Source of the DNA: Ophelia neglecta
Taxonomy: Eukaryota
Length of the DNA stretch: 64,000 nt
Assembly (NCBI GenBank): GCA_965285935.1
Contig: CBDIWN010000008.1
Span: 372,001 to 436,000, forward strand
Direction of reading: 5' to 3'
Both the position numbers and the translations under genes were made by a program. Numbering within the stretch: the stretch's first letter is position 1; every line of letters begins with the position of its first letter. Shown piece by piece: positions 131 through 37,600 of the stretch. The notes under the pieces were generated by a model that was not told the DNA's origin, searched no databases, and saw nothing but the letters and a program-made list of their open reading frames with translations.

Positions 131-3100
131 AGGCCCTGATATTCTTAAAGCGATCCCTAGCTATGTTTTGTTTCTGCTTGGCCACGTCACATGAACTCAG
201 TTCTCCATTAGGCACGTCCTAAAACAGCAGATTAAGTAATTAATGGAAAAAAGCATGAAAAGAAAGATGAAAACAGAAGGACAAACATCCGTATGATAAA
301 TGAGAGAACACAAATCATATATCATAGCATCGATGCAAAATTAGGTAGCTGGAAAGAACCAATATGTTTTTTAATTCAGACCATCCAACTTTAAGATATC
401 ACACTCGCTGAATGTCTTAAAATGAAGGTTAAGAATATTGGAACATTATTTTATTTTAGTTTCAAATATTGCCCAGTAATTAATAAAGATCTATTTTCGT
501 GGCTAAGCTTGGTTTCTTTTCTGCCGCTAACATATATATAACAAATGACCAGTTATTGAAACCCGCAGTGTATATACAATGAATGTTTTGGGTAATAGTG
601 CGTATGCATGAAACATTTGTCCTTCATTACGCATGTGTGACCCAATGAGTCAATGCCACAACAGTGGTAGTCTAAAAACTGCAGTGGGATAAGACACCAA
701 GATATGAAAGCTTACATGGTGGATCAACCGATGTCATGAACTGTTTGAAGTTTAATTACCAGATAAAAACATTAATAGATACATCAATACCAAACGATAC
801 ACGTAAAGGACGCATAATTTACTCAATGTTTTAATTGGAAACTAAAAGGAGCATAACTCCTGGCCGTTGACAATGGTTGCCTAGATTGAGGGCGCGGTTT
901 TCATTTTCAAAATGCTACTTACTTCAAATTCCTTTTTCAAACCATCCTTAGTGTATTTCCGTGCCCCAATATATACTTCTAGATCATCTTCTTTGACGCA
1001 AGTTCCTTCTTCAAGACGTTTTGTAGCCGGGAAGTCATAGTATATCGTATTAGGGTTCTCATCTACGTTACCTCCAAAGCATGGATTGTCTACTTCCTCC
1101 ACAACTTTCGTTTCGGCGAGTTCATTATCAGGTCCTTTGGAATGGTAAAAAAGAACATTAGTCGCATACTGTCCATAGCACCTGACATGCTTTCTAAAAA
1201 TGACACTATACAGCGAAGCGAGTGTTAACATAAATTGATTTCATATGAAAAAACGAGAGTAGGTACCCGGCACACAAACAATATCATTTATCAAGAAAAG
1301 TCAATTAATTTGGCCCGATACAATCAGGAACCGAAAGCCATAGGCCTGGAATTACTTACCGGAAGGCCTTCTAAATGACGAATAGCTTCTTCCCTTTGGA
1401 GGTATCTCCTCCATTTTAGCATTAGCATTATCTTTCGCTTTCGTGCGTCGTTTCCTATTATGAATTTTCAAACACACCGTTTTGATTGGGTAATGTAAAT
1501 AGCGCTCGTAAGGGTTTTTATTACTCATTAGTGATTACGAAGCACTCTCAGTGTCGATGCTTTCTAACATCATTATGGGATATAATGCGTCTGAGAAACA
1601 ACGTACGGGGTGATAATTTCTTAATTCACCAACCTGAGAAAAACGACAAGAATTACCACCAGGATGGCTATAGTCAGGAACGCTGCTATTGATCCGGTAA
1701 TAGGTCCGACCAGGCTTAACGAAGCTGGGGGATCGACACTAGGTTCTGAAGGATTGCACAATTACGTGAAATGGTGATTGGTTAAGCAGCTGTAATCATG
1801 TTGTTTGCATCTGAAGCACAATGCATAGGTAGTATAAACATCGGCATATAAAGGCAATGTCAACTGCTTTGCGGCACACGAATTCAACGGTTACAAGTTA
1901 ATAAAAACTTCAGTTGTTGTAGTAAATATTATTTGTGACGACAACAAATATGAAATTACATGTGAAAAGGCAATATTATCGACATTTTTTTTATATTGAC
2001 AACAAATAGTTGAGTTTAAAACTGAATTTCAATTCAAAACCTTGTTCCTGTGTGGCTAAAGTAGTAGCGAAGACAGTCGTGTTTTTGAGAGAGTCTTCTT
2101 TTATTCCAGTCAATTGCCGATAAATCTTTAATATGATCCGGTATGTAGAATTGACGGCCAGATTTGTCAATGTCTTGTCATATTGCATAGCAATATTATC
2201 TTCGTTGATTTCTATTGTAAGCGATTCAATATCTGCCCCATTTGCCTCTGATACGGTGATTTTGTAGCCAAATACAGCCGATGTATATAATGGAATAGCT
2301 TTCACGTGTGTCCATTCAATGGTTATCCTGTCAGTTTGAACATTGGTAATGCTGACCTTGTTTATGTCCGGATACTCAACATAGGCTGTTCATATAAAAA
2401 AAGCAATAAGATCATTTTGTTTTCATTAATACATAAACATTACTGTGATTACTTTTATTAGATATATTGATCAAAATTATGTGCAATAAAACTGATTTTA
2501 CATACCTACAGACTGATTACAATAATCTCCAGCATACCATGTATCGTATGGTATCAGCTGACAACCGTGACTACATGCTCCACTGTACTGATGACAAGAC
2601 GTTATGTTATCTATAGTCGCACAGTGAAAGCCACATATGTGATCGCAGGTTATCCCATAAAAACCACTGTGACAGACGCACGTCCCGCTATACCTGTCAC
2701 ACACAGGGTTACCATGCTCACCAAGACACCGATTATTACAGGTTTTATTGCAGTATTCGCCATAAGAACCGCCCTGACACCCATGGGTACAAATCCCATT
2801 CCACTGGTCGCAAGATCCAGAGACTAATTGGTTGAGCGGCTTACAGCCAGAACTGCACTCTGTTTTACAAAATGCTCCCCACCTGGCCCCAAGACAGCCC
2901 TTAGAGCATGTTCCGTTGTTTCTCACACAAACCGATGTCCCATTAACACCATTACAGTGTTCACTGCAGGTTTTATCACATGTCTTTAAGTAGAAACCGT
3001 TTCGACAACCATTATTACAATCTCCTGTTTCTCTGTGACAATCGGGGGACCCATTGACACGATGACAACCATTGCTACATCTGTTCTGACACTGGTCTCC

Positions 3101-6100
3101 AAAGTAAGGGTCCTGACAGCCACTCGTGCAACGTCCATCAGTAACAGAACATGACCGAGAATTAGGCTCCTGACCAATAAGGCAATTCGCACTACATTGG
3201 CTGTTACAATTGATACCGAAATGGTTTATGTCACATTCTGTAATGTAGATTTTAGTCTATACGTGAAGGTTTGTTACGGTTCACCTTGAAACTAGATGTA
3301 ACTGCTCAGACATTGTGTGTTATGTTATCTTCAGTGAATAGTGGCATGATTTGTTAAAGGTTAAAACAGTAACGGGCCTACCTTGGCAGTCCGGGTACTT
3401 TGGGTAGTTCTTGTCGCATATACCGCAGCCAATCATGGGATCGCAAGACTGGCATCGATTTCTGTCACACACTAGAATAACAGGGGAATAGTTAACACAC
3501 ATAAATAGTGACCTGTTGGGCCATACATTTTAACACAACTTTCATAAATCCCGATTAATCGCTTTAACTCTTAATTGTCTTCCCGTGCAAGCCTAAGATC
3601 CAAGTAATTACAGTGGGTTGACGTCAAGTTCAGGAGTGAGTCTGTATTTGTTTATCACCATCTATAATCTGACTATTAATATATTAAGTTAGGGCATTAA
3701 TTGCAATAGTGGCAACAAGGTGTGGGTGCGTTGGTAAATGTATCCCTTATGCAGCAACTATCTATTCAAAATGGCCACAGTCCAATTCAGGAACATACAT
3801 TCAAGGATGACAATGAGTGCGGGTTTTAACATACCAATAGGTTTGTATCCGTGAACTATCACCTGACACTGGGCAAAGAACTGGACTTGATACCCGCCTG
3901 CATTTCTGATAATGGTGACGTATCTGCCGCTGAGGGGTGAGTCACAATATATTGTGTCGCTTCCTGCTTTTGGAACGACTCCTTTATAATTCTTACAGAG
4001 ACTTGTTAAATCACCGTCTGTCTCGGAACCAACTCCAAGGCGAAAATTACCGGTACGACCTGTGAAAAGGTATTCCTGGATACAAATACATTGTCTCCAA
4101 TGACACATTGTCCTCAGAGCGACTCTTGCAGTAACATTGATTCATGTATTGTACAGACGAATATGGGGGTAACTAATAACTAATTAAGAATCAACAAATG
4201 GCGTTTTGCAAAAGGCATGTGTTCATTATCTCAAGTTTGTGTTTTTAAGTAGCTCACAATGAATATAATTCTGCTATTTCGTAAAACTAAACCTGTTCTC
4301 GCAGAAAATATTCACAGGCCTAGTTTGCATTTGCCTTCAATCCCTGTATTAAATGGGAACTCGAATTCATGTGACATCTATTCGTTTTAATGCTAAAATA
4401 TATTAGATATGTAAGTAGCAATACTGGTACTGGTGGTCTATCAAATGCATACACATGAAGTACAAGTTGGAATTCTTTTTTTTTTGCCCATGAGAACAGA
4501 ATGGGAAGGACGAAAACAATTATTAGTAATGATGTGATTAATGCTACAATCATGCGTGGATGTTTCAGGTAAATGTTTTACATTTGTCTCTATCAGTCGT
4601 TTTTCATTTTCTTACTGTAAGATGGAGAATGCTGTCTGTTTAAGATGGTGACACTAACAACTGTGTAGATGTCCTCTAGATCGACGTACCACCAGGCTCT
4701 CTTCCCAGATCCAGCATCAGGATGTGCACAATTAGCTATCGATGTAAAGATTTTACCATCGACGGCCAGATCAGCGGCGAAATTATAAAATTGTCCACTT
4801 TGATATGCCGGCCTTCCCTTCGCTATATTACCTGTTTATACAAAATACTGATAAAACAGTCTGGTCTATTATGCTGTATTTAATCATAGAATAACTTATT
4901 TAGTAAACCACAAGGGCGAAAAGAACGGAAACTACAATTTACCGGCAAATGGATAAAACGATCCTCATAATCAAAGGATAACACAAAACAAGAAATTTAA
5001 AAGCATCATATTGAACCCGATGCATACTATAGAAACATTTCTCTGGTAGGGCATGAATATCTATTTGCATTTCACTCCGGGTCGGACTCCTGAAGAGAAG
5101 GGAAGAGGTTGAGGCATATTGGTTCAGCTAGGGATTGGAAAAAGTGCAGGATGCATGCAAACATTGCTAAACACGTGTAGACCTACCCTCTACCTGCATT
5201 CCTCCCATGGCAATATTATTTGTTCTTTTCAACATTGTCAGGGGCGTTCTGATATTTCATAATATAATAATTATATATTGCATAAAGAAATTGATTATAT
5301 TTTGACTGTTCATGTAAAATGTACGTCATATTATTAAAATGAGACTTATGGAGTGCTTATACCTACACAAATAAGGACTTGAAAGTTAGATAGTCACAGC
5401 GATAGTGTGCCTCATGTGTCTGTTTATTGTTAAAAAGTTTCAGGAAATGATGCAATGGTTAAATGAAACTTTGATAACTATACATTATAACACTTTCAAA
5501 GATACTCTATTTTGACAGTTTTAAAATAAAAATAAACAGAATTTTTTACCGAGTTTACACCCAGGCCCGTCTCTCCGTATGATGGCAGGGTCATCCCATT
5601 CACATTCACCTCCATTGATACAATCTCCTGTCGTCTGATCACAACCCTTGGTACAGTGACAGGGAAATACACAGCCAGCAGTACTCCCAAACCTACACAG
5701 ACCTGAGGGAAAAAGTTCCTGTTGTTAGCTGAAAATATCCGAGGGCACTAACTTGTTTCATCTTTTATTTAATATCTACACTGGAACACTCTGTCAGCCG
5801 GCTGTTCTTCCCAACGGCCCGGATTATGTGAATCAGTTCAATCATACATAAAAAAATATATGATGCAATAGATGCCATTAGATTCTACTACCATGAGCTA
5901 TTTCTCCACCCGAGAAATAATCTCCGTCCGACTCACACTTCATATCAGCCTCCGCAGACGCAATTCATTCCATTTTCGGATAACTTGGATAATAACGTTT
6001 GATCAGTACAAACTTTTTTTCTTCTCATATTCCATTTCCATGCCCACACAAGGGTGTGGGTGGTAATAAGCAGTCCCGTGCCCCTTGTACGGTAAACATC

Positions 6101-6819
6101 CTAATGGTAATACATGGCATGTTTTAATGTGAGCAGCATTGTGACCTTTCATAATTCCCGATAGCTTTATTATATTTTTAAATACAAACGCGTCTTTGAA
6201 TTCTCACTTGTGAGAAGTGACACCTATGCAAAGCTTTCCCCAAAAGCTGCCCCCCCCCCAAAAAAAAAAAGAAAGCGCACCACGCACCTCCCAGGAGCCG
6301 TTTCCTATTTTTGGAAACATCCGCCCCTGGACAGGATTCACGTCTACAACACACCACACGATATTCATATGAATGTGTGCCTTAAGATTCAAAGATCGGT
6401 GAATAGAAAATTTTATATCTATTTCAATGTAAACATTCCGCTTCCAATATGTTATCAGAAGCACTGGCGGGGTACCGAAAGAATAAGGCCCAGATAATAA
6501 TGGTGGGCATGAAATTTGTCAAGGTTTGTGGGACTTTCTGACGTGAAGTGGGTCGTCTTTAGTTATGTCACGATTTTGGTTGTAACTTGTGAAAATATAT
6601 AGTTGACACCAACTGATTTTGATGCGTACTACAAAGTATTCATGACCAAAAAATCATACGTGTAAATCGAATGTTTTACTTAATTAATACTGCCTCGGAC
6701 AACAACAAGGAGATCAAATAATAACAATAAAATAACATCTACTAACCTGTCTGAGAGGTAACTCTTGTAAGAAAAACATTGGAACTGACTAGAAAACAAA
6801 TGTAAATGGTAGGAGACAT
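131..6819 (-). CDS. Gene A: receptor-type protein tyrosine phosphatase with F-type lectin, EGF-like repeats and FN3-like ectodomain (3'-partial; PTP region continues beyond position 1)
   Basis: Hand-built GT-AG exons with consistent phases: 6819-6747 (signal peptide MSPTIYICFLVSSNVFLTRVTSQT), 5702-5550 (EGF-like), 4831-4616 and 4059-3835 (F-type lectin, NIAKGRPAYQS..AVDG..CAHP..AWWYVDL..GRYVTI), 3471-3382, 3237-2506 (6 EGF-like repeats), 2385-2041 (FN3-like), 1745-1634 (TM GPITGSIAAFLTIAILVVILVVFL), 1454-1360, 1134-923, 218-131 (PTP D1 start, AKQKQNIARDRFKNIRA). Exon-for-exon homologous to gene C. Confidence 0.9.
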
Positions 6820-8230: not shown

Positions 8231-8476
8231 CTTATTGGATGAGGGGTGGGGCCTTATCCTAATTGGATGGGGGGGGGGCTTATCCTAATTGAATGGGGGT
8301 GGGGCCTTATCCTAATCGGATGAGGGGTTGGGCCTTATCCTTATTGGATGGGGGGGGGGGCTTATCATAATTGGATGGGGGGGGGGGCTTATCCTAATTG
8401 GATGGGGGGGGCTTATCCTCATTGGATGGGGGGGGGGCTTATCCTAATTGGATGGGGGGGGGGCTTATCCTAATTA
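8231..8476. repeat. G-rich minisatellite, about 9-10 units of CTTATCCTAATTGGAT plus G(9-11)
   Basis: Directly visible tandem units of about 25-28 bp with variable G-run length. Confidence 0.95.
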
Positions 8477-12356: not shown

Positions 12357-15300
12357 TTAATTCTTGGCGCCCTCTTGCTGGTCTATATCCTCATAATCAT
12401 TATTTGTATTTAGTTGTTCGATCATTGGATTTCCATCCTCAGTCAGATTAGCTGTAAAACGTAATAAAACATTCCTAAATCCACACTTCATACTTTCATG
12501 AATCAAAGACATGTACACAAAACAATTTTCAAATCAAAATCTAATGACAATGCCCATATTGCAATATTAAGAACCGCCTGTATATGCTTATACTTTATGG
12601 ATATCTGCAACACATGTTCAGCCCATATTACAAATCACCTTTAATACGACAGGAAAAAGTTGTTTGCCGCTATAATTATGAATTATAATTATTAGTGGTA
12701 ACAGGCCATTTCACCTACACATGTAATTCTCACATTGTAACACTATTATATTACGCTATGGTATTAACAAAGTGTGGTATTTCCCAAATGTCGCTTTCAT
12801 TATGAGTTCACAGTGCGTGTAAAATATGTGTTTATTGGTCAAACAACGATGCGCAGTAAATAGGAGAAGAAAAAAAAACTATTATAAAACCAAAGCTTTT
12901 TTTCTGACTCTCACCATAGGGGGAAGGTTGCGGGGATATTTTCTCATATATGTTACAGTCGGATAATTCAATTTCTTGTGTGCCGTGAACCTGGTTGTCA
13001 TTTTGTTGTGAACATTCGTTTGTTAATTGGGTCACCTTTCGTACCCTGCAAAAATGAAAACAACATACTTCCATATTCATTAACATTTAATGTCATCCAA
13101 CACAGTCAATACTACATGCTTATGTGAATATATCTACCAGATTGGGCCTAGAGAAAGTACGTAAACTATTTTCTTTAAACATTTCGAATGGTGGTTTTTA
13201 TTGAAAATAACAAGAAAGCATCTATTTTAGACATCACTTACTTGACAATTAGACAACCACTGATGGTGGCAACAGTGGCAATTACTGCAACAACCGCTAT
13301 AACAATTCCTGCCAATGCGCCCGATGATAGGGATGCATTTTGCCCTTGTCAAATAAATATGCTAAATTGGAATATATGGTAGCTGATATCATACAAGCGC
13401 GGGACTATTCTGCTCTAGTAAACCCTACGTTGTACGCTACAAAGGGGTCTTTGTCATTTGTCTATGGCTACATTTAAAATAATGATTGTGTCTATTAAGT
13501 AACTACACTTTAGACATCACTATCTAGACACAATTTAATGTATAGTCTTTATTGTCAATAAGGGAATTGCCGACGTTTCTTCGACATTTGCAACAAACAT
13601 TATTAGTTTAACATTAAATTCAATAACCTTGATTTTGCGCAGCCAAAGTAGTGGCAAAGACTGTCGCAGGGTTGCGGGAGTCTTCTTTTGTTCCATTCAA
13701 TTGTCGATAAATGTTTAATACAATCCGATATGTGGAATTGGCCAATAGACCTGTTAAAGTTTGACTATATTTCATGGAAGTATTATCTTCTCTGACTGCC
13801 ATTCTAAACGCTTTATCATTTTTCCCATTTCCGTCCGAGGCAGTGATTTTATACCCAAATATAGCCGCTGTATTTAATGGAATAGCTTTCACGTGTGTCC
13901 ATTCAATGGTTATCCGGTCAGTTTGAACATTGGTAATGCTGACCTTGTTTATGTCCTGATACTCAACATAGGCTGTTCAAATAAAAAAGCAATAAGATAA
14001 TATTGCTTACATTAATACATAAGCATAATTGTAATTACTTTTTATATAGATGAAATATTAATCAAAATTATGTCTCAGTGAAATATAACTGATTTTACTT
14101 ACCTATAGATTGATTACAATGATCTCCAGCATACCATGTATCGTACGGTGGTAGTTGACAACCGTGACTGCATGTTCCACTGTATTGGTGACAAGCCGTT
14201 ACGTTATCTACAGCCTCACAATTACTACTACATGGTTGATGGCAGGTTTTGCCATAATAACCACTGTGACAGACGCACCCTCCGCTATATCTATCACACC
14301 CAGGATTACTATGCTCACCAAGACACTGATTAATACATATTTTATTGCATAATTCGCCGTAAGAACCGTCTTTACACCCATAATTACAAATTCCACTCCA
14401 CTGGTTGCAAGATCCAGAGACTAATTGGTTGAGCGGCTTACAGCCCGAACTGCACCTTGTTTCACAAAATGCTCCCCACCTGGCCCCCAGACAGCCCTTA
14501 GAGCATATTCCATTGTTCCTTGCACAAACAGATGTCCCATTAACACCATTACAGTATTCACTGCAGGTTTCGTTACATGTGTTTGAGTAGTAACCGTTTC
14601 GACAACTATTCGTGCAATCGCCTGTTTCTCTCTGACAAACTTTGGTACCATTGACATGATGACAACCATTGCTACATTTGTTATGACACTGGTATCCAAA
14701 GAAAGGGTCCTGACAGCCACTCGTGCAACGCCCATCAGTGACAGAACATGATCGAGAATTGGACTCCTGATCAATAAGGCAATTGGCAGTACATTGGTTG
14801 TTACAGTTTAAACCAAAATGGTTTTTGTCACATTCTGTAACGTAGATTATAGTCAGTAAGTGAAAGTTTGTAATGGTTTACCGGGAAACTGGATGTTATT
14901 GCTAAGACATTGTGTATTATATAATCTCCAGTGAAAAGTAACATGATTTGTTTAGTCTTAGACACTAATGTGCCTACCTTGGCAGTCCGGGTACTTTGGG
15001 TAGTTCTTGGGGCATTTATTACAGCCAATAACGGGATCGCACGACTGACATCGGGTTGTATCACAAACTAGAATGACAGGTGGATAGTTAGCAAAAATAA
15101 AAAGTGATGTATTGGACCTTATCTTTAAACAAAACTTTCATATATCCCAATTCATCGCATTGACTCTAATTTTTTTCCTGTGCAAGCCTAAGGTCGAAGT
15201 AATTCCAGTGGGTGACATCAAGTTCAGGCGTGAGTTTGCATTTGTTTATCACCATCTATTATCTGACTATTTATATATTAAGTTAGGGCATTACTTTTAA

Positions 15301-18300
15301 TGGTGCCCACAATGTGTTGGTCCGTTTGTAAATGTTTCCCTTATGCAGCCACTATCTATTCAAAATGGCCACAATTCAAATCTGGGCCATGCATTCAAAG
15401 ATGAAAATGAGTGCGGGTTTTAACATACCAATAGGTTTATATCCGTGAACTATCACCTCACACAGGGCAAGGTACTGGACTTGATGCCCGCCTGCATTTC
15501 TGATAATGGTGACGTATCTGCCGCTGAGGGGTGAGTCACAATATATTGTGTCGTTTCCTGCTCTAGGAACGACTCCTGTATAATTCTTACAGAGACTTGT
15601 TAAATCACCGTCTGTCTCGGATCCAACTCCAAGGCGAAAATTAGCTGTAAGATCTGTAAAAAGGTATTCCTGGATACAAATACATAGTCCTCAGATCGAC
15701 ACTTACAGTAAACTTGAATCATGTATTGTACAGACGAATATGGGTGTGACTAATAACTAATTTATAAATCAACAAATGGTGTTTGCTTAAGGGCTATGTG
15801 TACATTATCCCAAGGTTGGGTTGACATGTTTTTAAGTAGCTCACCAGACTATTTTGTTGGCGAAGTTTACACTTATAGAATGAATTCTAATAAAATAGTG
15901 GAAGATTTAATACCAAAAACAGTGTGTTGTGGGAAATACCTCTTTACCTTTTCACCACGTATTCACATTGTATGTTAAGCTTGTTTTACCAGTACCGTAG
16001 CTAACAATCAAGGACACAAAATATTTTGTTTTGCGATGGTTGCTTCGCAAATGATTTTGTATTAAAGTTGTATCCTGTTTTAGAGGGAATTATTCACAGG
16101 CCTAGTTTACATTTGCCTTCGACCCCTGTATTAAATGGGAACTCAAACTCATGGGACATCAATTAGTTTTAATGCTAAAATATATTAGATGTGTAAGTAG
16201 CAATACTAGTACTGGTGGTCTATCCAAAGCCATGAGTACAGCATGGGAGGGACGAAAACAATTATTAGTAATGATGCGATTAATGCTAACATCGTGCACC
16301 TAAGATTATTATTCTATTTCTGTCTCTAGATATGGTCATCGTTTTTCTTCTTTTCTTACTATGATATGGAGAATCCTCTCTGTTTAAGATGGTGACACTA
16401 ACAACTGTGTAGATATCCTCTAGATCGACGTACCACCAGGCTCTCTTCCCATGCCCAGCGTCAGGATGTGCGCAATAAATTACCCATGTAACGATTCTAC
16501 CATCGACGGCCAGGTCAGCGGCTAAATTGTCAACTTGTCCACTTTGATATGCCGGCCTTCCCTTCGCTATATTACCTGTTTATACAAAATACTGATAAAA
16601 CAGACTGGTCTCTTATGCTGTATTTAATCATAGAATAAACTATTAAGTGAACCACAAGGGCGAAAAGAACGGAAAATACACTTTACCAGCAAATGGATAA
16701 AACGGATAATACAAAACAAGAAATTTAAAAGCATCATATTGTATGCGATGCATACTATATAAGCATTTCTCTGGTAAGGCATAAATATTTATTTGTATTA
16801 CACTCCAGGTCTGACGCGGGAAGAGGTTGAGGCATTATTGGTTCGGGTAGGGATCGGAAAAAATGCATGCAAACGTTGTTTGACACATGTAGACCCGCCC
16901 CCTTCCTGCATTATAGGTTTTTACAGACATATATGCCATACTTTAGTAATATCACAGTCTTATTCATTGCCATAACAATCATATTTTTGCTATGTATACA
17001 GAGCCACTAGAACACATGCCATCAATGTGCTTAATCAGGGGCCACATTCTTTAAAAATTAGTCCCATGCTTCTTGCTGATTTACACCAAATGACTTCAGT
17101 TTCTCCAATGGCAATGGCAGCATTATCTATTAACTGGTCGTAATATTTTGGCCGAAGTTTGTAGCTATCCATTCCCTTTAATCTTTAATACATAATTGTA
17201 GCTTTGTAGTCCATGGTGTTTCCCTGTCAGATGAACCACCATCAAAGCGAGGAATATAATTGTGTATCATCTGCATATCGACGAAAGTGGATACGTTGAG
17301 GAAAACTTACAATATCCCCCAAAGGGAGTGTGCATATAAGAAACAAAATATGTCCTAGAATACGTCCCTGTTGAAAACCTCACATTTAAAAAAAGTAGGA
17401 TAAGACAGGTCGCTACAAATCTTAACGTTCTCGGTAAGACCACCCAAGTATGATTTAAACCAATTGAGGGCTTCTCTTCCTAAATACATACTTTCAGCTG
17501 TTTACGATCCAGCAGAGTTGAATGATTAATGTTTCAAAGCCGCTGGCAGATCGAGATATATAAAAAGACATGAACAAATTAATGAATATTATTCTGCACT
17601 ATGTTATTGTTTATAGGTTGTCTGGAACGTCTCTCCGAGCTCATTTACAACCAAATGTTCAGACAGCCTCAGGGCAACAGTCTGTTCAGAACAAAAATGA
17701 TATATTTGAATCACAAATGTTGTTGGCCATTATATTTTTGCTCACGCCAGCTTTCTTAATTGTTTTTTTTAACAGCATTCTTCAACATATATGGAAAAGT
17801 ACAACTCTTAAATGGCAAATTTACAATATTTGCATATACTGGTGCTAGTGATTCCAAACATTCCTTTGTCTCCAACATTGGCAGAAGATCCAATTCACAG
17901 CTCTTGTAGACATTTAACGCCTAGCAAAGTTATCCATTCTCCTAAAGTTTCTAGTTATTGTTCTTAGAGTTTGGGCTCTCTTAGGGTTTGATTGAATAAA
18001 TAGGTGTCGTAAGTGCATTCATAAATTCATATATCCCCCTGGCATAGTATTTATTCTTTTCAACGTTGTCAGGGTAGTTCTGATATTTCCTAATATATTA
18101 ATTATATACTGCACATAGTTATTGATTATATTTTGAATGTTCAAGAAAAATGTAAATCATATTATTAAAATTAGAATTACGGAGTGTTTATATCTTATCT
18201 TACACAAAAAAGAACTTGAAAGTTAGCTAGTATTAGCGATAGTGTGCATCAGGTGTCTGCTTGTTAAACGGTTTCGGGAAATGACGTTATGGTTAAATGA

Positions 18301-20712
18301 AAGTTGTTAAGTACACAGTATAACACTTTCAAAGATACTCTATTTTTACCGTTTTAATATAAATATAAACAGAAATTTTACCGAGTTTACACCCAGGCCC
18401 TTCTCTCCGTATGATGGCAGGGTCATCCCATTCACATTCACCTCCGTCGATACAATCTCCTGTCGTCTGATCACAACCGTTGGTACAGTGACAGGGAAAT
18501 ACACAGCCAGTAGTATTCCCAAACCTACACAGACCTGAGGGAAAAATGTCAAGGGAAACATTTAAATGGTAGGACTTGATGTTCGACAAAAACATGAAAC
18601 AAATAAGTATTCCTGAACATTTTCTTAGGGCACCACGGCTTTCTTTGAATCGTAAAAGTTTGCTCCAAAAAGTCGGGCCAAAAAGAAAAACTAATTTACA
18701 ACGAGGAGTGTGGTGGGCCAAACATATCAAACGTAATCTGCGACACATGAACCTACTTATGTAGAAGAATACATCGACGAATTATAAAATTTCATATTAG
18801 TAGTATATTTTGACACAACAGCGTTGTAGCGCTACTAACGTTGTGTGCGTTTGACGAGCGTCCTGTTGTTAGCTGAACGTATCCGAGGGCACTAACTAAT
18901 TCCGTTGAAAGTCAGATATTTCATTTTTTATCAACTATCTTTACCCTGAAGCACGCTGTCAGCAAATTGTTCTTCCCAAGTATTACATGAATCAGTTCAA
19001 ATAAAACAGTTCAAATCAATGACATACATAAAATAATTATATATGATGCAATAGATGCAATTAAATTCTACAACCCTGAGCTATTTTATTTTTCCTTCGT
19101 CCTCCAAACCTCATATCAGCCTCCGCAGCGGAATTTCGTTCCATTTTCGGATAAATCTGTTAATAGCATTTACTCAGTATAAACTATTAATTTGTCTTGT
19201 TTCGTTTCCAAGCATCAAAAGCGCCATACTAGCTTTAGTACTTGTAATAGTAATTGTATTTGTGATCCTTTTTGTGCCTCGGTCAATGCGGCAAACGGTA
19301 TCATTTTTAAAAATACCAAATGAAGCATTGACAAACCATCAATGCGGCAAACAGTATTATTTTGCGGTCAGAACTATGTGCATTTGGTATTATTGTGGGT
19401 CAAACTCGCAGCACAAAAATACCAAATGAAGCACTGACAAACCACCATACAATCCCCTGATTTCCTTTACCTTACTATACCCATAAGAAATATCCAAGCT
19501 ACACAGACAAAAATAATAATTCATCGGTAGCCTACAAAATGAAATATGAATTCAGAAGATTGTCAAACACGATGTTAAACCCACAGAAGGGGACAAAACG
19601 GGATCCGAAATATAAAAGAATCCTCTGAGCCGAAAGGTTCTTATAGCAGTCTTTTGCCTACTTCAAATACAAAGCGGGGTTCCTTAAACATCCAGTACAA
19701 ACATATAATGAGATTTATATCCTGTGTATTCAAGGCACTGTGTGTATAGCCGACAGTAATGCAAATAATCTGAGGCGAACTAATGCTCTTTGTTAAGAGT
19801 CCGGTGGGGGATCTAGAGATTGCCAGGTTCTTTAGCGGGTCTAGTTGCAGTCAAACCCCTTGACGTTGTCAGAGCCCCCTGGAGCAATCTGGCGGATCGA
19901 TAAGTAGTTATACTGTCGGATCTAGAGGTTGTCAGACACCCTTTATAGATTTAGAGGTTGTCAGAGCAACCTTATCACATTTTGTACAAAAGAGTTCATT
20001 CAAGCTGTTAGATATCCTTAATTTATCACGGAGAAATTCCGTTATTCCCGATAGCGTTCTAAGTTTGTTTTCAATAAAAACGCTTCTTTGAAATCTCGCT
20101 TGCGGGAAGTGACAATTATTCCACCCTTTTCCGAAGGCCGCTCCCCACATCCACAACCTGGCGCCGTTTTCTATTTGCGGGACGCAACCGGCCCTGGATA
20201 CAACACAAAACTTTACATACGAGATTGATATTAATGTGTGCTTTAAGATCCCAGGTGTAGTGATTTGATGATTTAAAATCATGTTCATTGGAAACGGATA
20301 CCTTCCCTTCCAATGTGTTTAATGTCAGTGGTGGGGTAGTGAAAGAAGAAGGCCTAGAAACTAATGTTGGGCAAGCAATATGTCAAGATCTGTCTTTTCT
20401 GACGCGAACAGGTCGTCTTTGGCTAGTGTCAGGATTTTGGTTGTAACTTGTGAACATGTATAGTTGACACCACGACGGCAACTGATTTTAATATCATATG
20501 TGTGCTTCAGATGTTTTCTGACTCTATTTCCATACTAATCACTGTTGATCTTTACGGGTTAACAATAAGTTAAAACAACTTTGAATACTTAATAATACCG
20601 CTGCCAACAATAAGGAGATCGAGTAATAATAATACTAACCTGTCTGAGCGGTAACTCTTGTAAGGAAAACACTGGAACTGACCAGCAAACAAATGTAAAT
20701 GATACGAGACAT
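12357..20712 (-). CDS. Gene B: phosphatase-less single-pass F-type lectin/EGF/FN3 receptor (MEGF10/Draper-like architecture) with a tyrosine-motif tail, about 720 aa
   Basis: Exons 20712-20640 (signal peptide MSRIIYICLLVSSSVFLTRVTAQT), 18534-18382, 16575-16360, 15653-15429, 15067-14978, 14834-14103 (open, 6 EGF-like repeats), 13972-13628 (FN3-like), 13344-13242 (TM GALAGIVIAVVAVIATVATISGCLIV), 13045-12915, 12451-12357 (TAA). Exons 1-7 have the same lengths as gene A (73,153,216,225,90,732,345). Phases join with no internal stop. Confidence 0.85.
16990..17960 (-). mobile_element. Decayed L2/CR1-type LINE reverse transcriptase fragment in gene B intron 2
   Basis: Fragmented minus-strand peptides CELDLLP..KECLESLAPVYANIVNL..FP, LDLPAAFET, QGRILGHILFL, and RYADDTQLY (YADD at about 17266-17277). 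Confidence 0.8.
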
Positions 20713-26720: not shown

Positions 26721-28632
26721 CTACTTAAAGGTTCCATAGAGCTTGTTTCTTGTAATATACTCCATTGCAATACCATGTAGGAAACGATACTGGTCCTGTA
26801 AAGAAAAGGAAACATAGATCTTACATGTGGCGATATCTTGATATACATGTATTGGATAACAGATGTATAAATAGTGCACTATCATTGAATATTAATGCTG
26901 TTGAATATAGACAGACCTTTTGAAATTGTAAATTATTTTACAAATACAGTAACCTTTGGTACAAATCTTGAAAATCCTTCCGGCAATGCATCGATTAGTT
27001 ATGTTACTTACCAAATTGTTGACAAATTGTTCTCTGTGTAGAGATACAACCCGCACAGCAAGAAAGACGTCCACCTCGCGCTCTTCCTGCAGCTTCTCCA
27101 GCATATAATGTGCCGCACATATCATTCCACTACGACTAGCTCCGTCTCTGAGAAATATAGAAGTAGTAAACGACAAGGTAATTAGGGTTTGGGATGCTTT
27201 AAAGAGATCAATACTCTCCTTTATCACCTTACCAGGCGTGACCACAAGGCAATGAGAGTTCAGATGAATTTTTAGAGAGATGTTACATGGGGTTGAAGCT
27301 AGCTTATTTATGTGTGTGTTAGTCCTTTTATTACAAACAGTGGTGATGTGCTTATAACTTACTTGCATTGGATAACAATTTTTCCAATGCCAGCTTGTTG
27401 TTGACTCTTCTTAATGCGTTCTAACAAATTTAAAGTGTCCTCCAATCCTGGCAGATCCTGGTTATCTGGACGTTGTTTGAACAATATATGGCAGACTCTT
27501 ACTGGCTGGTTCTGGAACTTATTATATAACCGATAGTAATAAAATAATGCTGTAATCAAACATAATATATTTCGGTTGACGTATAATAGTTGCCATATGC
27601 AAAACGATCCATGTGCTTAACTAATATTTATATTCAAACTTTATATAAGGTTGGAGAATTGAACTGTATACTTTGAACTGAACAGTGTGTTTAATATCGA
27701 GAGACTAACACTTGAGGAAAATGACACAATGAATGTTCTTTCTTCTATGGCATCTTTCTCATCTTCCTTTTGTGAATCGATGCGCACCTCAAGGTCACCA
27801 AACTGCCTTACATCACCTTTCTCAAAATCCAAGTACTTGGGAGAATCCTGATGATCGAAATATATGGATCCAGTCAGTTTTATATAATTAGACATATGTA
27901 AATTCGATAATGTAACTTCTCGCTACTCGAATGGCACTCTTGGCTTGAAAGAAACACGTTCATCTACCTCAGAGTCAGGGGACGATGTTTCTAAAGTAAT
28001 CACAGTGTGGCACTTTTGTTCGTACACCAAACGCCAGAAGTCAATGATAGTATCAGGTAATGGCAATTGGGTCGCAATAAATGTCTTCTCCGAGAGATAA
28101 CTCTAATAAATCGTGGAAGAAACCAAGAATATTCCTACTATTAGTGGATTTAGTTATATCGGTTGGGTACTTACGAAATAACGAAAACAGTGAAGTTATT
28201 AATTGAGAATTGTCCTCTAAATCAGCTGGAAATCATCATTAAAGATATCCTCACTAATACGAAGATATATATAAATAGTTATATAACAATCTAAAAGGGA
28301 GAAAAGCTGAATTTAGGTTGTGATCACTTAAACTTATACATACGTTAACCAAAATGGCATTGATATAGTCATTTGTGCCCGGACATCTTGTAGATAGACA
28401 CAACCTGTGTTTATTATCTATAGAAGAAAAACAATAGCACACAGATGGTTGCGTTAACTAATTTGATTCAGCAAACGAACACACATTTCCATAGAGGACC
28501 AATATGCATATCCGTTATCTATACCCATGTACCTGGCACTATATCAGCATCTCGATTCTTCCGATTGTTTTCCTTACTCAGAGCAGTAAGTTTGTCAGCT
28601 GACTTCTTGTGTTGTTTCATTTTGGAGAGGAT
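26721..28632 (-). other. PTP domain D2 of gene C, probable pseudophosphatase
   Basis: [14 protein letters not shown] and [21 protein letters not shown] are present. WPD is replaced by RPD and the signature reads VIQCKDGASRSG. Confidence 0.8.
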
Positions 28633-31600
28633 CTATAAATCATGTCATGATTGTATCGTACAATGGAAATACAACCGGATGACTTTTTAAATTTGCCAAA
28701 TTGTTATTTTAGTGTTTTTATAGATAACATAAATCGCATTCTACTTTTACACTTTTTCATACATTAAACATTATCATATTGAATAATGTGAATGTAAATT
28801 TAGAAAATGATATAAATACGATTAAGTAAATACAATTATTAATAATTTGCATAATAATTCTATCTCCAAGTACTAATTTATTGACATTTTTTGTCAATTA
28901 ATCAATGATGAAATTTTGCAGCAAAAACGCAAATGAATGGAATGTATTTATATGAATACAAAACCCACCTTGAACTGTTCTTCAATGGGAACCTCATTGG
29001 AATATTCATTTCCGTCTATCAGTTGTGTATACCTCTCAGGATACAGGTTACACGGAATGGCGGTCTCTCCTTGCTGGTATGCGTCTAGCAGTGCATCGTA
29101 AATGAATTCATATTGTGACTGAAAGCAGGAGAAGAGTAAGCCTATGCTACCAATTGCCGGATAACAGCAGTCAGTGATATGTAGCTAGGTTCAAAATTTG
29201 ATATCGAATTTATAACACTGAACAGCATAATTAATAGATCAATTACTACTATCTACATTTATAATATTGTTATTTTTTGCCCACTTTCTATAATAAATGA
29301 GGTCAGATAAACACGAAAAATCTTTCTAGACAGAACATTCTAATTGCTTCAACACATGGCCTTTGGATCTACACTAATGGTTGCTGACATGAAGCATGAA
29401 ACATTGGCTCATGTTAAAGCCTAGTATCCTCTCAACTGGACTATTATCACAGAAAAAAGTCTTACCAAGGATTGAACCATGTCCATGCGTTCATTTCTGA
29501 GTTGTGTCACACATCTGAAGACATCTACCTTTCCTTCTCCTTTCATTTGGTCCAGAAGATAGTCCAGAGCAATCAATGTCCCTGTGCGTCCAATTCCCGC
29601 ACTAGAGAGAAAGTTACATATGTTTATTCTATGTATTGTACATAAATGAATACCCTTGAATTGTTCTTAATCAGACTTAGTGTTTGCTTTTAATCGGTTA
29701 TTTGACCTGCAGTGGACGATGATTGGTCCTGTTCCCTCCACGTCAAATGATCTCAGTTTTCTTCTGAAGGCCAAGAGAGGAAACGGGTGGTCTGGGGTCA
29801 GTTTGTCTGGCCAGGAAAGGAATTGGAAGTGCTTTACTGTCCTTTGTTCATTCTACAAGAGGAAAACATTATTATTCTTATTTCAAATTTCATTTGCGTT
29901 GATTGTTTCTAAGATTAATGAGTGGCGGCAATATATTGAATTAATAGTTAAACACGGAGGTTGGACAAGGTGACCACACTCTATGACGATTCATGTGTTA
30001 GAGAATCTCAAATGATATCATATTCAAGCTACAGTGTATTACTACTGAGCACTGCCCTCTTAAGTTGGCACTAATCTAATGAATGTGTAACGGGAATCCG
30101 GTGGACTGCATGTATAAGCTAAACTAAAGAAAGGCTTAAATTGAATATTTTGATTTATTTGGGACAGATGGTATGCAAAATTTGTTGAGGCAAGCCACAG
30201 CTGTTCGTTGTTCGTAGAATTGGCGTTCATTGTGTGACATATGCTTTTATAGATAAGTGAAAATGTGAACACAAAAAAGCAAAGACTAAAGAAATTGACG
30301 CACAAACCAACCTCTTTTTAGACATATACTGAGCAGATATGCTTTAAAGCCAAGCCCACAATCATGTCTAGTACTGATCAAATTTGTATACGTTGCAAAA
30401 CAACACGCTATTTACATTATGGTATAAAGTGGAAATGTTGATCACATATTTCTGAAGCTTCCTTTGCCTTCCTCGCTACCTCGTAGTATTAAGATTCGAG
30501 CAGTACGGGACATTTCACATTATTCTAAAGTATCTTTGTTCCATTTGCATATTCCCCATTTAATTAAGCGAAGTACTTTTAAAACCTACCCCCTTTTGAA
30601 TGGTGATGATTGTTAGATTATGGTCGGCATATGACTCACAGGCCGTGGTAATCACTGTAATATCACCATAGGTTACACTCTCTCCAACTGGCTCGGGCCA
30701 ATACTGTGCACACTTTGTCTGTTATTAATAAAACGAATTGGGATGGTCAATGTTTCTGTTGACACGCCTAAACGGGATTTCATACCCCAATACCAAAATG
30801 ATGCAATATATCGAAAAACATTTCATGCTGTTTCACACTGACAAACCTTTGTGAGTTCTTTAATTCGAGTTGCCATAACAACACGATTTGACTGTAACTG
30901 CCAGACCATAGACCATAACGCGCAGGCTGTTTCAGGCTTTGGTCCTGGAAAAAAATTAATTCAAACGTAGTGTTTGATACTCGTTAGGAGTATTATTCTG
31001 ATTTTGTTGGTGTTTTGTTTTTTTCTAATTATAAATAAAAATAGTTGCATAGGTTTTAATATGTTTATTCTTAATATATTGTTTTAAAATGTTATTATAA
31101 ATTATATTTAATTATCATAACTATTTTCAATCTTTATCTTCGTGAAATTGTGAACCTGAACTGTGACAACTAATCTAATTGCTAGATAACTGCATCAGAA
31201 CTTTATTTACTTACCTTGTGTGGCTACGTAATGGTTTGACTTGTCAGGATAACCCTGGAATGTATGCATCATTTTGATTGTATGGTTGAAAACGGCTTTA
31301 AGATTTGCGTTATTTAAAATATCGGAAAGCAAATTTGACTCAGTTAAGGTGCCTGTAAACCCCTACAAATGTATTGCAGTATAAGATTGGTAAAAATGGC
31401 AATGTCACTTATATTATATGGATAGATATATAGTTTATAGATCCTTAGATGACAGGCGTAATCCAAATTTCTACCCCATTATCACTTTTATTTAGTATTA
31501 AATGGCTTGATTACGGCAACATTTGATTGTTGACATCACATATGGTAATCACGTGACCAATGTTGTCATACATACTAATTAGACTCCTCCCCCTCTCTTA

Positions 31601-34600
31601 ACTGAATCTAGCAGGCCTGAAGACGTTACTAAGAAAGATGTATACAATCATCTGATACAGATTCGAACTAGTCCCCATAAATATTCGGCTTGCTCAATAT
31701 CTGTACTTTTGGATACTAGTTATATTATCAGTAAATGGCATTTTCAATGTCACTAAGGTGCTTTAACTTAAAGATCAATTTAAAAATGTGTATGACAGGG
31801 TAGAATTATGTATTGCTGTTGTTCTCGATGAACGCAATATTTACAACTTTGTACCGGTGGGGTTTTACAGGGAGCTTAAACCATGTTCCATATAACGGTA
31901 ATCGTGTTTACCGTAATGAAGCTGGCATTGATGTAGTCCGAGTTATCTACAGTAGCCTCCAAAACAACTCGAGAATAGTCATCTGTAGAAACATAACTCG
32001 TGATATAATGACTAGTGGTACTAAGCGAGGTCATTTAACGTCGAAATAGTAAAATATGCCTCGTGAAATGTATAGTAAAATATGGCTTGTGAAATGGATA
32101 GTGAAAAATGACTCGTGAAATGTGAAATGTATAGTGAAATTTTCATATTGGATTCTTTTTACACCATACATCGTCACTTTACGTTCTGTTCACTATTTAA
32201 TTGTCAAACAAGTACTTTTAAATGGTAGTTGACGGGTAAAAACACATACAGGCTCTGATGTTCTTAAATCGATTCCTATCGATGTTGTTTGGCTGCTTGG
32301 CCACGTCACACGGGCTCAGTTCTCCTTGAGGCAGGTCCTAAAAAACGGACATTACTTAAATCAATCTTAAAATTTAAAATAATAGGACTAAATCAAACAA
32401 GACAAATAAACAAATAGGGAGATAGACAAAGAGTTATTCCTTCACAAATAGTTCAATACTTTATCATATAAAATGACTAGGTAGTAGATGTCAATCGCGA
32501 AAAGCTTGGTGTGCGGCCTTATAAAAGACAAATTCCCACATTTTATATATTATATTCGGGATGGTAACAATGGTTTCAAATAACACATCCGATTTAAGAT
32601 ATCATCAACGCTGTGTTGGTTTTCCAATGATTGGAAATCACAATGATAGATTCGTTTTTTATTGAAAATAAAAACACGTTGTATGTCGGCAAATCCCGCT
32701 TGATTTTTGTTGTCAACATGTATACAACAAATGCCAATATATGTTATCAGCGGGGTACATAAAATGTAGGTAGTGGTAATTGGTAATGATTTAGAAACTT
32801 GATTTCTTTGGAAACATGTCCAAGCTTTACCTTACAGTTTTATCACACCTACAGTTTTTAGTTTAAAACTGAGCAGAGTAGCCAGTGAACTCGAGCCATT
32901 TTATATGCCGATTCAAAAGAAAAGAAATTATATCATAACAGCAGGTAACTTACACCAAATTCTTTCCTCAGACCATCCTTTGTGTATTTCCGAGCCCCAA
33001 TATAAGCTTCCAGGTCTTCCTCTTTAACACAAGTTCCCTCATCAAGTTTTTTTGTAGCCGGGAAGTCGTAATATATCGTATGGGGGTTGTCCTCATCTAA
33101 GGTACCCTCAAAGCTTGGGTTGCCTATTTCTTTCACAAATTGCGTGTCGGCGAGGTCTTTGGCACGTCCTATGCAATGGAAAAACAAAAAAAAAAACATC
33201 TTGTTGAAACGTGTCTAAAGCATATATAGCAATTTGTTGAGAATAAAGCAACATTTAATTTTACATACAAAGACGTGCGTTACTTACGGGAAGGTTTTTT
33301 AACAGACGCATAACTTGGCATTTCTTCAATTTTAGAACCAACATTGTCCTGCGATTGCTTGCGCCATTTCCTTCTACGATTGTAAAAAGAAGTGTTGAAG
33401 AAGAGTTATAAAATTGGTAGCGATGTTATTGCGTAATCCTTTTCAAGAAGCGCTGTCAATTATGTGGCAAACTAAAACCATAATGTGAAATAATGTGCCT
33501 ACAACGTAGGGCCTACGAGATGATTATTTTTCAATAGTTACACACTTGAGAAAAATTACAACAAGAATTACTACAAGGACAGCTATCAGCAGGACGGCCA
33601 CGACAGATCCGGTAATAGGACCGACCAGTCCTGGCAGGCCTCTCGCACTGACGCTTGGGTCTGGATGATTGCACAGATATGCGAAATTGACGTTGGTCAA
33701 AAAGTCGTAAATATATTGTTATCATTCACTGCACTTTAATGGGGAATTAAACTTACACAGGGGATAGTTTGGCTTGCCATAAATATATTGAAATTGCAGG
33801 AGAAGATATGCGTTTGACGCAACTAAATACGACACCACTTTTTCCTGACTTATTTTCGATATTTGTGACAAAATAATTATAAGTTCAATGTAATTTTAGT
33901 TTTATTAACCTTGCTCCTGTGCAGCCAAAGTAGTAGCTAAGACTGTCGTGGCTTTGCGGGAGTCTTCCTCTTTTATCCCAGGCAATTGTCGATAGATGTT
34001 TACTGTGATCCAATACGTAGAATTCGCAGCAAGATTTGGCAATGTTTGGTTATATTTCATTAAGACATTATCTTCTCTGATTGCTATCATAAACGGTTCA
34101 ACCTCTGTCTTATTTGCATCGAACGCAGTGATTTTGTAGCCATATACAGCCGATGTATTCAATGGAATAGCTTTAACATGCGGCCATTCAATGGTTACGC
34201 TGTCAGTTTGCAACTTGGTAATGATAACTTTGTTTCCCTCAGGATACTCCACGTACCCTGTTCCCAAGAAAAAACAAAACGGTTGTAAAGTGTTTTCATT
34301 GATAAACAAACACGGAATAGATACTGTTTTCATTAATGTGTTTCCGTTAATTATAAAAAAACGGAATAGATACACGGTAATAAAAGCAACATCATTCATC
34401 GAGAATAGTGCGTTAAATCTGTCAGAAATCATCAGGAACCACAAGCCGAGGGCCTTTGTAGGTAGCACGGTGATTAGTTTTCATTCTGCTATAAATGTTT
34501 GTTTCTTAAATAATGCAATAAGTGGAATAAAACTGATTGTGCTTACCTATAGACTGGTTACAATGATCTCCAGCATACCATGTATCGTACGGTGGAAGCT

Positions 34601-37600
34601 GACAACCGTGACTGCATGATCCACTGTATTGATGACAAGTCGTTATTTTATCTACAGCCTCACAGTAACTACTACACGGTTGATCGCAGGTTTTGCCATA
34701 ATAACCACTGTGACATGTGCAGGACCCAGAATACCTTTCACACACGGGGTAACCTTGCTCACCAGAACACTGGCATGTTTTATTGCAGTATTCGCCATAA
34801 GAACCGTCCTTGCACCCATGATTACAAATTCCGCTAAACTGGTTACAAGACCCAGAGGCTGTCTTGTCGACAGGCTTACAACCTGAACCGCACTATGTTT
34901 CACAAAATCCACCGAACCTGCTATCCTTACAGCCCTGAGAGCATGTTCCGTTGTCTCGGGCACATATAGGTTTTCCATTTATACCATCACAGTAGTCACT
35001 GCAGGGTAAGGTACATGAATTACCGTAGTAACCATTTTGACAACCGTTGTTACAATGTCCTGTATCTCTGTGACAAGTGTTGGAGTCTGTGATAACAAGA
35101 CATTTATGGTTACATTGGCTCTGACACTGGTCTCCAAAGTATTGATCCAGACAACCACTCGTGCATCGTCCATCAGCGACAGAACATATCTGATTAACAC
35201 AATTTGCGCTGCAGGTTGAGGAACACATCGTACCATAATAACCACTTTTACAACCATTCTGACAATCTCCTGTTTCTCTGTTACAAGTGATGGAGCCTGA
35301 GATAACACTACATCCATTGCTGCAGCTCAGATGACACGTGACCCCGTAGTATTGGGCTCTACACCCCTGAGTACAACTACCAGAGTCTCGGTTACAGACT
35401 TCTAAGCTGTCAATACGGTGGCAGTTAGTACTGCACCAACTAGTACATGTATTTCCCCAATATCCTGGAATACACCCATTATTACAACGGCCATCAGAGA
35501 GAGAACATTGCCGAGAGTTGGAACCCTGAACAAAGAGGCAATGCGCACTACATTGGAAATTACAGTTGATACCGTAATGGTCTTTGTCACATTCTGTAAG
35601 GTACATCATATGTCATAATTCAAGATTATAACGATTATTATTATTTAGCATGGTACCGGATGTTACCACTATGGCACTGCCTAACATATAATGAAAGTTA
35701 ACACGGTAAGCCTACCTTGATATTGTCTAAAAGATAATGTACGTTAAAATGGTAAGCCTACCTCAAACTGTCTAACATATAATGAACGTTAACACGGTAC
35801 ACCTACCTTTACACTCTGGGTACTTAGAGTTCTGGGTACATGTAGAGCAGCCAATTAAAGGATCGCATGACTCACATCGGCTACTCTGACACACTGGAAT
35901 AACAGGTGGGTGTTAAAAAGCAACTGCAAGCTTCAGGCAAACATCAAGGTAAATTTAGAGGGTTGATATAATTTTCCGTAGTGCGTTTATATCTATCTAA
36001 TATCAAATGTAAACAGCCCACCGATAAAATTTAAAATTCGTAATTGGCGACAATAACCAAAAGGTAGATTCTGCTCATCGAAATTTACTCTTTGTGCATG
36101 AACTAAATATTTAAAATAAACACTTTCTATTAAGTTATATATTCGAGATGTGAGGGTTTGACATACCAATAGGTTTATAACCATGAACAATCACCTCACA
36201 CAAAGCAAGAAATTGAGGTTCAACAGTGGCCTCGCGCGTTCTGATAATGGTAACGTATCTGCCGCTGAGAGACGGGTTACATTGTATGGTTACATTTCCT
36301 CCCTGAGGAACGACTCCCGTAAACACTTTACAGGGAATTGTAAAGTCGCCCTTAGTTTGGTGACCAACTCCAAGACGAAAATTACCGGTACGCTCTGTGA
36401 AAATAAATAACTGGCCTAAAATAACAAAATTGAACGCCAGGAAAACCAAAGAAATAGTGATCTCGGCCAATAATAACCCCATATCACAATGTCAGGATAG
36501 AAGATAGACATTTTCACTGTAACTTGCTGGGAGTATAGCTCTCTAGCGATCTGCCATTGGAGACCCACTTATCTTATATTATGACCCGAGCTTCTCTCCC
36601 CATTCATACAGTTTAAATCAGCCCAAAAAAAGTCCTGTCACCTCAGGATTTATTGGTAGAATATAACTCAATTGTGCGTCCAGTATTGGAATTTGCCTGC
36701 CAGGTGTGTCACATAGGCCTTACCGGGAGCTAAGTAGTGACTTTAAATCTGTGCATAATCGAGCGCAATGAACAAGGCGCTCTCAGTGGAATGGGGGTCA
36801 GAATGGAAAATTTGTGCTGATAGTAATGGCAGATGACAGTATCTAAACTGATGCAGAGACAAAGGGTAGTATCGACTAAAACTTAATATTAACACTAACC
36901 TAAACACCTGAGATTTCATATTAGTGGGTTGCATATTATAAATTAATTTGTATAAAGGTTGAGCACGCTCTCTTAACGGGTCAGCGGTTTTACACTTTGC
37001 ATGTCTTTAAACAGTTCAAATAAGAATTAAATGATGTACTGAATTGCACATTTTCAATGCAGAGAATAATGTTATAGTAGTGATGTTTACACAATATATG
37101 ACGTATGATTTGAGACACAACTTATTTATACAATAAAATCTCATAGTCAAAAAAGTTAATAAATATACACCTGTTATGTTGCCAAAAAATACTTCTTTCA
37201 ATTTATTTTATTTGTTTCTATTTTTGTATTATGTTCATAACAATTCAAACCACATTATTTTTTTTCTGATTATATTTCTTGGATTATTTCATCCGATGCT
37301 CCGGGTGAACAAAATCTGCCCTCTTGTGTAAAATATTACACATTACACCCGTTTTCTGTCCATGTAATATATCAAACTCTATGGCGTGCGCATAGTAACC
37401 AGGGTAAGTCTACTAGTCGTCCACTTACCATGCGCCGTAGAATCACCTCTGTTGTAGATCGTGACACTGGTCACTGTGTAGGTATCTTGTAGATCTACGT
37501 ACCACCACGCTCTCCTACCACCCCCTGCATCAGGGTGTGCACACTGATTAATATCTGTGCTGACAATACCATCCACTGCCAGACTTGCTACTAGATAATT

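Follow-up and report, generated by a model that had tools for sequence, protein, structure and literature searches.

The window, which is the whole stretch of 64,000 nucleotides that was analysed, carries three tandem paralogs, A, B and C, all located on the minus strand (Table 1). Exon models for these genes were predicted from open frames bounded by AG/GT (GT-AG) splice ends. The three genes share one plan: a signal peptide, one EGF-like exon, an F-type lectin domain encoded by two exons, an EGF array, an FN3 domain and a single TM helix. In gene C, the TM helix is followed by phosphatase domain D1, in which WPD and [10 protein letters not shown] are intact and the HCSAGxGR pattern is present, and then by D2. 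Only the first phosphatase (PTP) exon of gene A lies inside the window, and its catalytic phosphatase part lies outside. The in-frame TAG in the EGF array of gene C might represent a null allele, a pseudogene or a sequence error. If this codon is read literally, the product would be a secreted lectin-EGF fragment.

Table 1. Predicted genes, exons and other features of the window (positions are those of the window).
Feature	Position	Strand	Remarks
Gene A	131..6819	-	11 exons in the window, runs past base 1; open frame, GT-AG
Gene A signal peptide exon	6819-6747	-	
Gene A EGF-like exon	5702-5550	-	
Gene A exon 3, F-type first half	4616..4831	-	CDR1-3 and start of CDR4; His112 at 4724, Arg141 at 4637, His143 (replacing Asp) at 4631
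Gene A exon 4, F-type second half	3835..4059	-	Arg149 (AAA Arg86) at 4057; Gln213 (replacing calcium Glu) at 3865
Gene A EGF exon	3471-3382	-	
Gene A EGF array	3237-2506	-	
Gene A FN3	2385-2041	-	
Gene A TM exon	1745-1634	-	
Gene A juxtamembrane exons	1454-1360 and 1134-923	-	
Gene A first PTP exon	218-131	-	76% identity with the first PTP exon of C
Gene B	12357..20712	-	10 exons, 720 amino acids, without phosphatase exons
Gene B signal peptide exon	20712-20640	-	
Gene B EGF-like exon	18534-18382	-	
Gene B exon 3	16360..16575	-	CDR1-3 and start of CDR4; His112 at 16468, Arg141 at 16381, Asp143 at 16375
Gene B exon 4	15429..15653	-	Leu149 (replacing second triad Arg) at 15651; Glu213 retained at 15459
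Gene B EGF exon	15067-14978	-	
Gene B EGF array	14834-14103	-	
Gene B FN3	13972-13628	-	
Gene B TM exon	13242..13344	-	Not related to the TM exons of A and C
Gene B tail exon 9	12915..13045	-	Predicted first ITAM half YEKI (12948-12937) and Tyr of second half (12918)
Gene B tail exon 10	12357..12451	-	Rest of second ITAM half (YANL, across predicted splice), third motif YEDI (12395-12384), stop
Gene C	26721..41977	-	25 exons, 1411 codons; ectodomain as in A and B but with longer EGF array
Gene C F-type lectin	36167..37644	-	Exons 37644-37429 and 36394-36167
Gene C in-frame TAG	34893..34895	-	Codon 487 (EGF array); sole stop in an otherwise intact 25-exon frame
Gene C TM exon	33660-33546	-	
Weak signal-peptide-exon match	10581-10652	-	E 0.003; contains a stop
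Tandem duplication	43698-54280		5.3 kb, 99.2% identity, 29 mismatches, 15 gap bases
Sulfotransferase-like sequences	47075-47775 and 52361-53071	+	Overlapping frames, no evident introns
Tandem repeat arrays	62144-62690, 8227-8475, 46083-46617, 51369-51903		
Short direct and inverted repeats	57446-60017		Around a 139-codon Cys-rich frame, 58634-59050 (+), with no Pfam match

For the EGF exon, the closest matches found come from molluscs, at 29-36% protein identity. PTP domains are present in five of eight such relatives, and two of these five also carry an F5/8 lectin domain. A close relative was not found when exon 3 was used as the query. Exon 3 does match the solved F-type lectins 3cqo (4e-8) and 1k12 (5e-5), and the exon 4 profile matches 3cqo (6e-9); Pfam F5_F8_type_C scores under its cut-off when half domains are scanned. 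Separately, the weak match to a signal-peptide exon is possibly the remnant of another paralog.

Both disulfides of F-type lectins (C50-C146 and C108-C124 in Anguilla anguilla agglutinin, AAA) have their counterparts in A, B and C, at C110, C212, C169 and C186, and His112 and Arg141 are common to the three copies. The contiguous Cys82-Cys83 is missing from all of them. In the cation motif h2DGx, the AVDG is retained, but x is K/R/I and not N/D/S. The fucose motif, H...RxD x4 R/K, is not matched: A reads RxH x5 R, having lost the Asp of RxD (His143), and B reads RxD x5 L, lacking the second Arg of the triad (Leu149). C alone reads RxD x5 R, one residue longer than the consensus spacing. The calcium Glu (AAA Glu147) is kept in B and C and is Gln in A, such that C is the sole copy with His, RxD, second Arg and calcium Glu together; it is also the copy with the premature stop. 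Among 204 non-redundant F-type domains used for comparison (out of 488 extracted), the positions changed in A (D143, L209, L211 and E213) are 75-94% conserved and the position changed in B (R149) is 64% conserved. A and B lack the full fucose motif, and therefore they are unlikely to be canonical fucose binders.

An earlier note on this DNA had claimed, from a hand alignment, that amino-acid differences between A and B cluster in the ligand-binding loops of the lectin domain. Exon 3 indeed spans 216 nt on the minus strand in each gene, with AG/GT ends, and carries the same 14 amino-acid differences and 5 synonymous-only codons counted previously. The patches of difference, the identical framework strands and the versions carried by C at those sites were likewise recovered. 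The 14:5 count was rejected as a sign of selection, given that 16 nonsynonymous and 7 synonymous changes on 164:52 sites yield a neutral ratio (omega 0.71, p 0.47 versus neutrality). The A-B dN of the F-type domain (0.086) is below that of the EGF array (0.124) and FN3 (0.191).

To place these differences, sites were mapped onto AAA CDR1-5 by sequence alignment to 1k12 and 3cqo, with CDR borders set from motif anchors after the differences were known; a tighter CDR set (17 of 40 codons differing) leaves the likelihood results unchanged. A and B differ at 19 of 45 CDR codons versus 6 of 102 elsewhere (Fisher p 3e-7). Residues that differ in all three copies occur at 13 sites, 12 of them in CDRs (p 2e-6). 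By alignment, the variable sites fall on AAA CDR1-5 and on named binding residues, which places them on the predicted binding face; the changes include positions aligned to AAA Asn40, Phe45, Ser49, Gly80, Asp81, Arg86 and Glu147 (residue roles from PMC5712786). Part of the exon-4 patch does not belong to the loops, as its last three differences (209, 211 and 213) correspond to AAA L143, L145 and E147, in the last strand and the calcium ligand. By comparison of aligned sequences, general loop tolerance fails to explain the CDR clustering, because the clustering persists among columns that vary in the 204 other domains, where A and B differ at 16 of 36 CDR columns versus 3 of 57 non-CDR columns (p 8e-6).

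Similarity between A and B declines from the 5' to the 3' end. Their exons 1-4 show identities of 0.89-0.96, versus 0.80 in FN3, a domain in which all three copies are roughly equally far apart (p 7e-12); silent divergence (pS) between A and B rises from 0.086 in exons 1-4 to 0.267 in exons 5-7 (p 3e-6). Of the informative sites, 143 of 176 in exons 2-4 set C apart from A and B, versus 39 of 98 in FN3; A and B therefore likely share recent ancestry at their 5' ends, most simply via gene conversion. Introns 2-4, which flank the F-type exons, diverge by 0.12-0.17 between A and B, values taken from BLAST-aligned parts and thus possibly underestimates. Along the sequence, CDR patches that differ and framework that is nearly identical succeed each other at intervals of a few dozen bases. 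The loops would either have changed rapidly after the ends became alike or have escaped homogenisation, and the silent differences inside the CDRs (5 of 33 sites) are compatible with both.

The earlier note had also proposed diversifying selection on ligand specificity, to be dropped if loop dN/dS did not exceed that of the rest of the gene or if the variable sites lay away from the binding face. Loop omega does exceed that of the remainder, at 2.25 versus 0.24 within the domain (p 1e-7) and 1.13 versus 0.50 across the whole ectodomain (p 0.002). However, estimates of CDR omega from a pairwise codon model of A versus B vary with the neutral yardstick. These are 2.73 with the silent rate of exons 1-4 (p 0.006), 2.25 with that of the F-type domain itself (p 0.039), 1.9-2.1 when introns 2-3 supply the rate (p 0.004-0.011), 1.54 when intron 4 does (p 0.08), 1.13 with the gene-wide rate (p 0.65) and 1.05 with introns 1 and 5 (p 0.65-0.84 for these last two yardsticks together). 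This spread arises because of the difference in silent divergence between exons 1-4 and exons 5-7. Since omega above 1 hinges on the yardstick chosen, positive selection on the A-B binding loops is suggestive only. Placement in CDR1-5 and the excess of loops over the rest thus speak for the proposal, but an omega above 1 is not sustained against the gene-wide rate.

It is possible, if rather unlikely, that no positive selection has occurred, and that near-neutral loops retain a divergence of A and B from earlier times, the framework being held alike by purifying selection together with patchy conversion across many paralogs. The estimates of 1.13 and 1.05 are in keeping with such a history, as are loop omega values below 1 for A-C and B-C (dN about 0.58, dS 1.2-1.3), the patchiness of silent divergence along the gene, and the numerous similar contigs that stack over the lectin-receptor ectodomain exons. 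It is harder to reconcile with the low divergence of introns 2-4, bearing in mind that those values may be underestimates, with the near identity of A and B at non-CDR columns that vary freely elsewhere, or with the close alternation of CDR patches and framework.

The intracellular ends of the genes differ. Downstream of FN3, the TM and juxtamembrane exons of A and C correspond to each other and run into PTP D1. In contrast, B departs at intron 7, which is unalignable with that of A, and proceeds to a different TM exon (47-48% nucleotide identity to A and C, versus 68% between A and C) and a 75-residue tail. No PTP exon was found between B and A. The predicted tail carries two YxxI/L motifs with a 6-residue spacer and a third motif further along. 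As a predicted splice product it fits the strict ITAM pattern, defined as cytoplasmic Yxx[I/L] x6-9 Yxx[L/I] (PMC9546547), and the second ITAM half depends on the predicted splice, for which AG/GT signals are present. Among 100,000 shuffles of this tail, a strict ITAM arises in 0.4% and three YxxL/I motifs in 0.1%.

Contigs from three runs of one sample were mapped over positions 1-18700. The B TM exon and exon 9 are represented by one contig per run, with 1-2 differences and a depth near that of intergenic sequence (X1: 29 versus 22-28). In ectodomain bins, the summed contig depth reaches several hundred, and as many as 18 contigs overlap at a single place; these sums are not copy numbers. 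These data suggest that there are many close ectodomain paralogs and that the B-type tail is rare. Among the contigs listed for these three runs of one sample, none joins FN3 to the B TM exon, and an Atlas search with tail exon 10 gave no usable match.

Additional relatives were collected with the ectodomain of the Ostrea PTP protein P0159 as query, and the best 120 of 183 shorter relatives were examined. Short-tailed relatives (TM plus a tail of 20-249 residues) number 38 in the best 120 of 183, and 25 of these 38 carry a strict ITAM. When three relatives from the EGF search are added, ITAMs are present in 25 of 41 tails, whereas 2000 shuffles average 0.23 such tails and never exceed 4. A strict ITAM was found in none of nine juxtamembrane regions of phosphatase or kinase members and in none of nine TM-bearing multi-lectin proteins. 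A profile search, which served as background, gave mostly multi-lectin proteins, none with the catalytic PTP motif.

Spacing between the paired YxxL/I motifs is constant at 8-9 in the 25 oyster ITAM tails, versus 6 in B, and the B tail is at most 32% alike to the oyster tails. The oyster tails are also mutually related: they form 9 clusters at 40% identity (6 with ITAM), and at 33% all but one of the 38 tails merge, so they may count as one origin. Three Ostrea ITAM forms have 71-73% identity to P0159 across the query region, and the contig given for them equals that of P0159 in length. In a tree of 19 domains, B pairs with A (99/94), and the phosphatase form P0159 falls with the three Ostrea ITAM forms (98/98); the tree omits 13 of the 25 oyster ITAM proteins (match of less than 90 profile positions) and P0157 (no match). 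A single ITAM clade was rejected in this 19-domain tree (p-AU 5e-65). Perhaps, then, ITAM tails had two independent origins overall, one in oysters and one in this window.

Two side observations concern these relatives. Judged by eye, variation among the Ostrea edulis paralogs P0159-P0164 falls mostly at CDR-equivalent positions and in one bottom loop. P0154 (Mytilus) and P0158 (Ruditapes) have comparable EGF arrays, followed by a tyrosine kinase domain or by a short tail that bears three more widely spaced YxxL motifs; within this superfamily, the predicted intracellular ends are modular.

As in paired receptors, the genes at this locus are clustered, their ectodomains are closely related and their predicted ends are opposite. 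The lectin outer parts of A and B, nearly identical except chiefly in the predicted ligand-binding loops, are joined to opposite signalling ends and likely make an off/on receptor pair; annotated oyster proteins show this arrangement too. We therefore favour, with moderate confidence, an explanation wherein the phosphatase of A and C and the predicted ITAM of B form an activating/inhibitory pair, with 5' ends likely homogenised by conversion and loops likely kept apart by selection. A ligand would cluster B, a Src-type kinase would phosphorylate its tail, and Syk would dock on the phosphorylated tail, leading to phagocytosis or defence. The oyster Ig receptor CgIgR, which has an ITAM, recruits Syk (PMC6994640). 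On binding related ligands, whether self or decoy, phosphatase members would reverse the B signal, via their own phosphatase rather than via ITIM and SHP. Conversion would keep the outer scaffold alike, and loop changes would vary the ligand and give each member its own ligand range, which for A and B is probably not plain fucose. For Siglec-11/16, conversion keeps ligand preference alike (PMC5701461), but the loops diverge in A and B, so these two need not share a ligand.

An unlikely alternative to the activating/inhibitory pair is that B serves endocytosis or acts as a scavenger-type receptor, its tyrosine motifs directing internalisation, and that the phosphatase members act independently without any paired logic. 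The YxxL/I motif also matches the endocytic sorting consensus. The Biomphalaria family of matching architecture has been classed as scavenger class F-like (PMC13712769), yet the constant spacing of two motifs in 25 oyster tails and the finding that in two lineages ITAM forms have phosphatase forms as their closest kin argue against this reading. Birth-and-death decay, in which the changes would reflect lost sugar binding in redundant copies, is very unlikely: the altered conserved residues of A and B and the stop in C would fit, but B, and A as far as seen, have open frames and intact splice sites, framework omega is 0.24 with cysteines conserved, and the triad is also missing in some oyster bindin isoforms (PMC5712786).

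Among known systems, A-C resemble the Biomphalaria LG5R 1B/1C receptors (PMC13712769) and the SudRes1 MEGF/GBD receptor phosphatases (PMC12297450), which have a signal peptide, a fucolectin or galactose-binding domain, an EGF array and a single TM, and which also show extracellular diversity and domain loss. The LG5R genes are clustered paralogs, of which 1C has two PTP domains, like A and C, and 1B has a short tail, like B (PMC13712769). The likeness to these receptors, which lie at snail resistance loci, is one of architecture, to which A, B and C add FN3. Short LG5R tails are reported to be without identifiable signatures (PMC13712769). The term 'ITAM' is absent from the main texts of PMC13712769 and PMC12297450 and from 22 of 27 supplements of the former, and the LG5R main text contains neither 'immunoreceptor' nor 'Syk'. 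A SYK-like kinase gene (Gene_Model_190, LOC106057675) lies within the snail LG5R receptor-cluster region according to supplement files 10-12, not the main text, of PMC13712769; its presence there may be due to chance.

Diversification of the F-type domain around the binding pocket, as in A and B, is described for oyster sperm bindin and eel fucolectin isoforms, with eight positively selected sites in bindin, loss of the triad in some of its isoforms, and a mid-domain intron as in A, B and C (PMC5712786). Those isoforms are not signalling receptors of the A-C type, whereas here the domain heads a phosphatase or ITAM receptor and selection is suggestive only. Siglec inhibition uses an ITIM and Siglec activation uses an adaptor, whereas A and C would have the phosphatase built in and B would have the ITAM in the receptor chain itself. 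Siglec-11/16 and Siglec-5/14 are lectins with opposite signalling ends and with ligand-binding exons homogenised by conversion, as proposed for A and B, and their frequent null alleles are a further likeness (PMC5701461; PMC4042635). Their fold is unrelated to the F-type fold, and their binding loops are kept alike but those of A and B diverge. Hydractinia Alr (PMC9546547) and oyster CgIgR (PMC6994640) are invertebrate receptors with ITAM tails, like the predicted B, and Alr has an FN3-like fold beside the membrane, comparable to the FN3 of A-C. Both have Ig ectodomains and no lectin domain, and their proposed counterweight is an ITIM, not a receptor phosphatase.

Both the diversification of F-type lectin loops and the lectin-EGF receptor architecture are already known. 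In the open-licence literature, we found no report on receptors of this kind that brings F-type lectin and ITAM together with receptor phosphatase. What appears to be new, as unreported in that literature, is that short-tailed members with predicted ITAMs are the nearest relatives of phosphatase members. More tentatively, molluscs and their kin could possess a widespread but so far unrecognised paired immune-receptor system, LG5R and SudRes1 included, in which F-type lectin-EGF ectodomains were repeatedly shuffled to ITAM or phosphatase ends and loops are under diversifying selection; we regard this extension as conceivable but somewhat doubtful. The kinship of ITAM-tailed and phosphatase members, if real, would offer a testable signalling mechanism, switched on through Syk and off by the receptor phosphatase. 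It would apply to a large family that has so far been annotated only as MEGF10-, draper- or PTP-kappa-like and that includes candidates at snail schistosome-resistance loci. It would also mean a type of paired receptor whose inhibitory member is the enzyme itself.

The window also holds features outside the three receptor genes. The tandem duplication is either very recent or an assembly artefact. The sulfotransferase-like sequences, of which the second copy was scanned and matches Pfam Sulfotransfer_1, look like a frameshifted pseudogene, and the first copy is without a short piece found in the second. The region of short direct and inverted repeats around the Cys-rich frame may be a transposon remnant.
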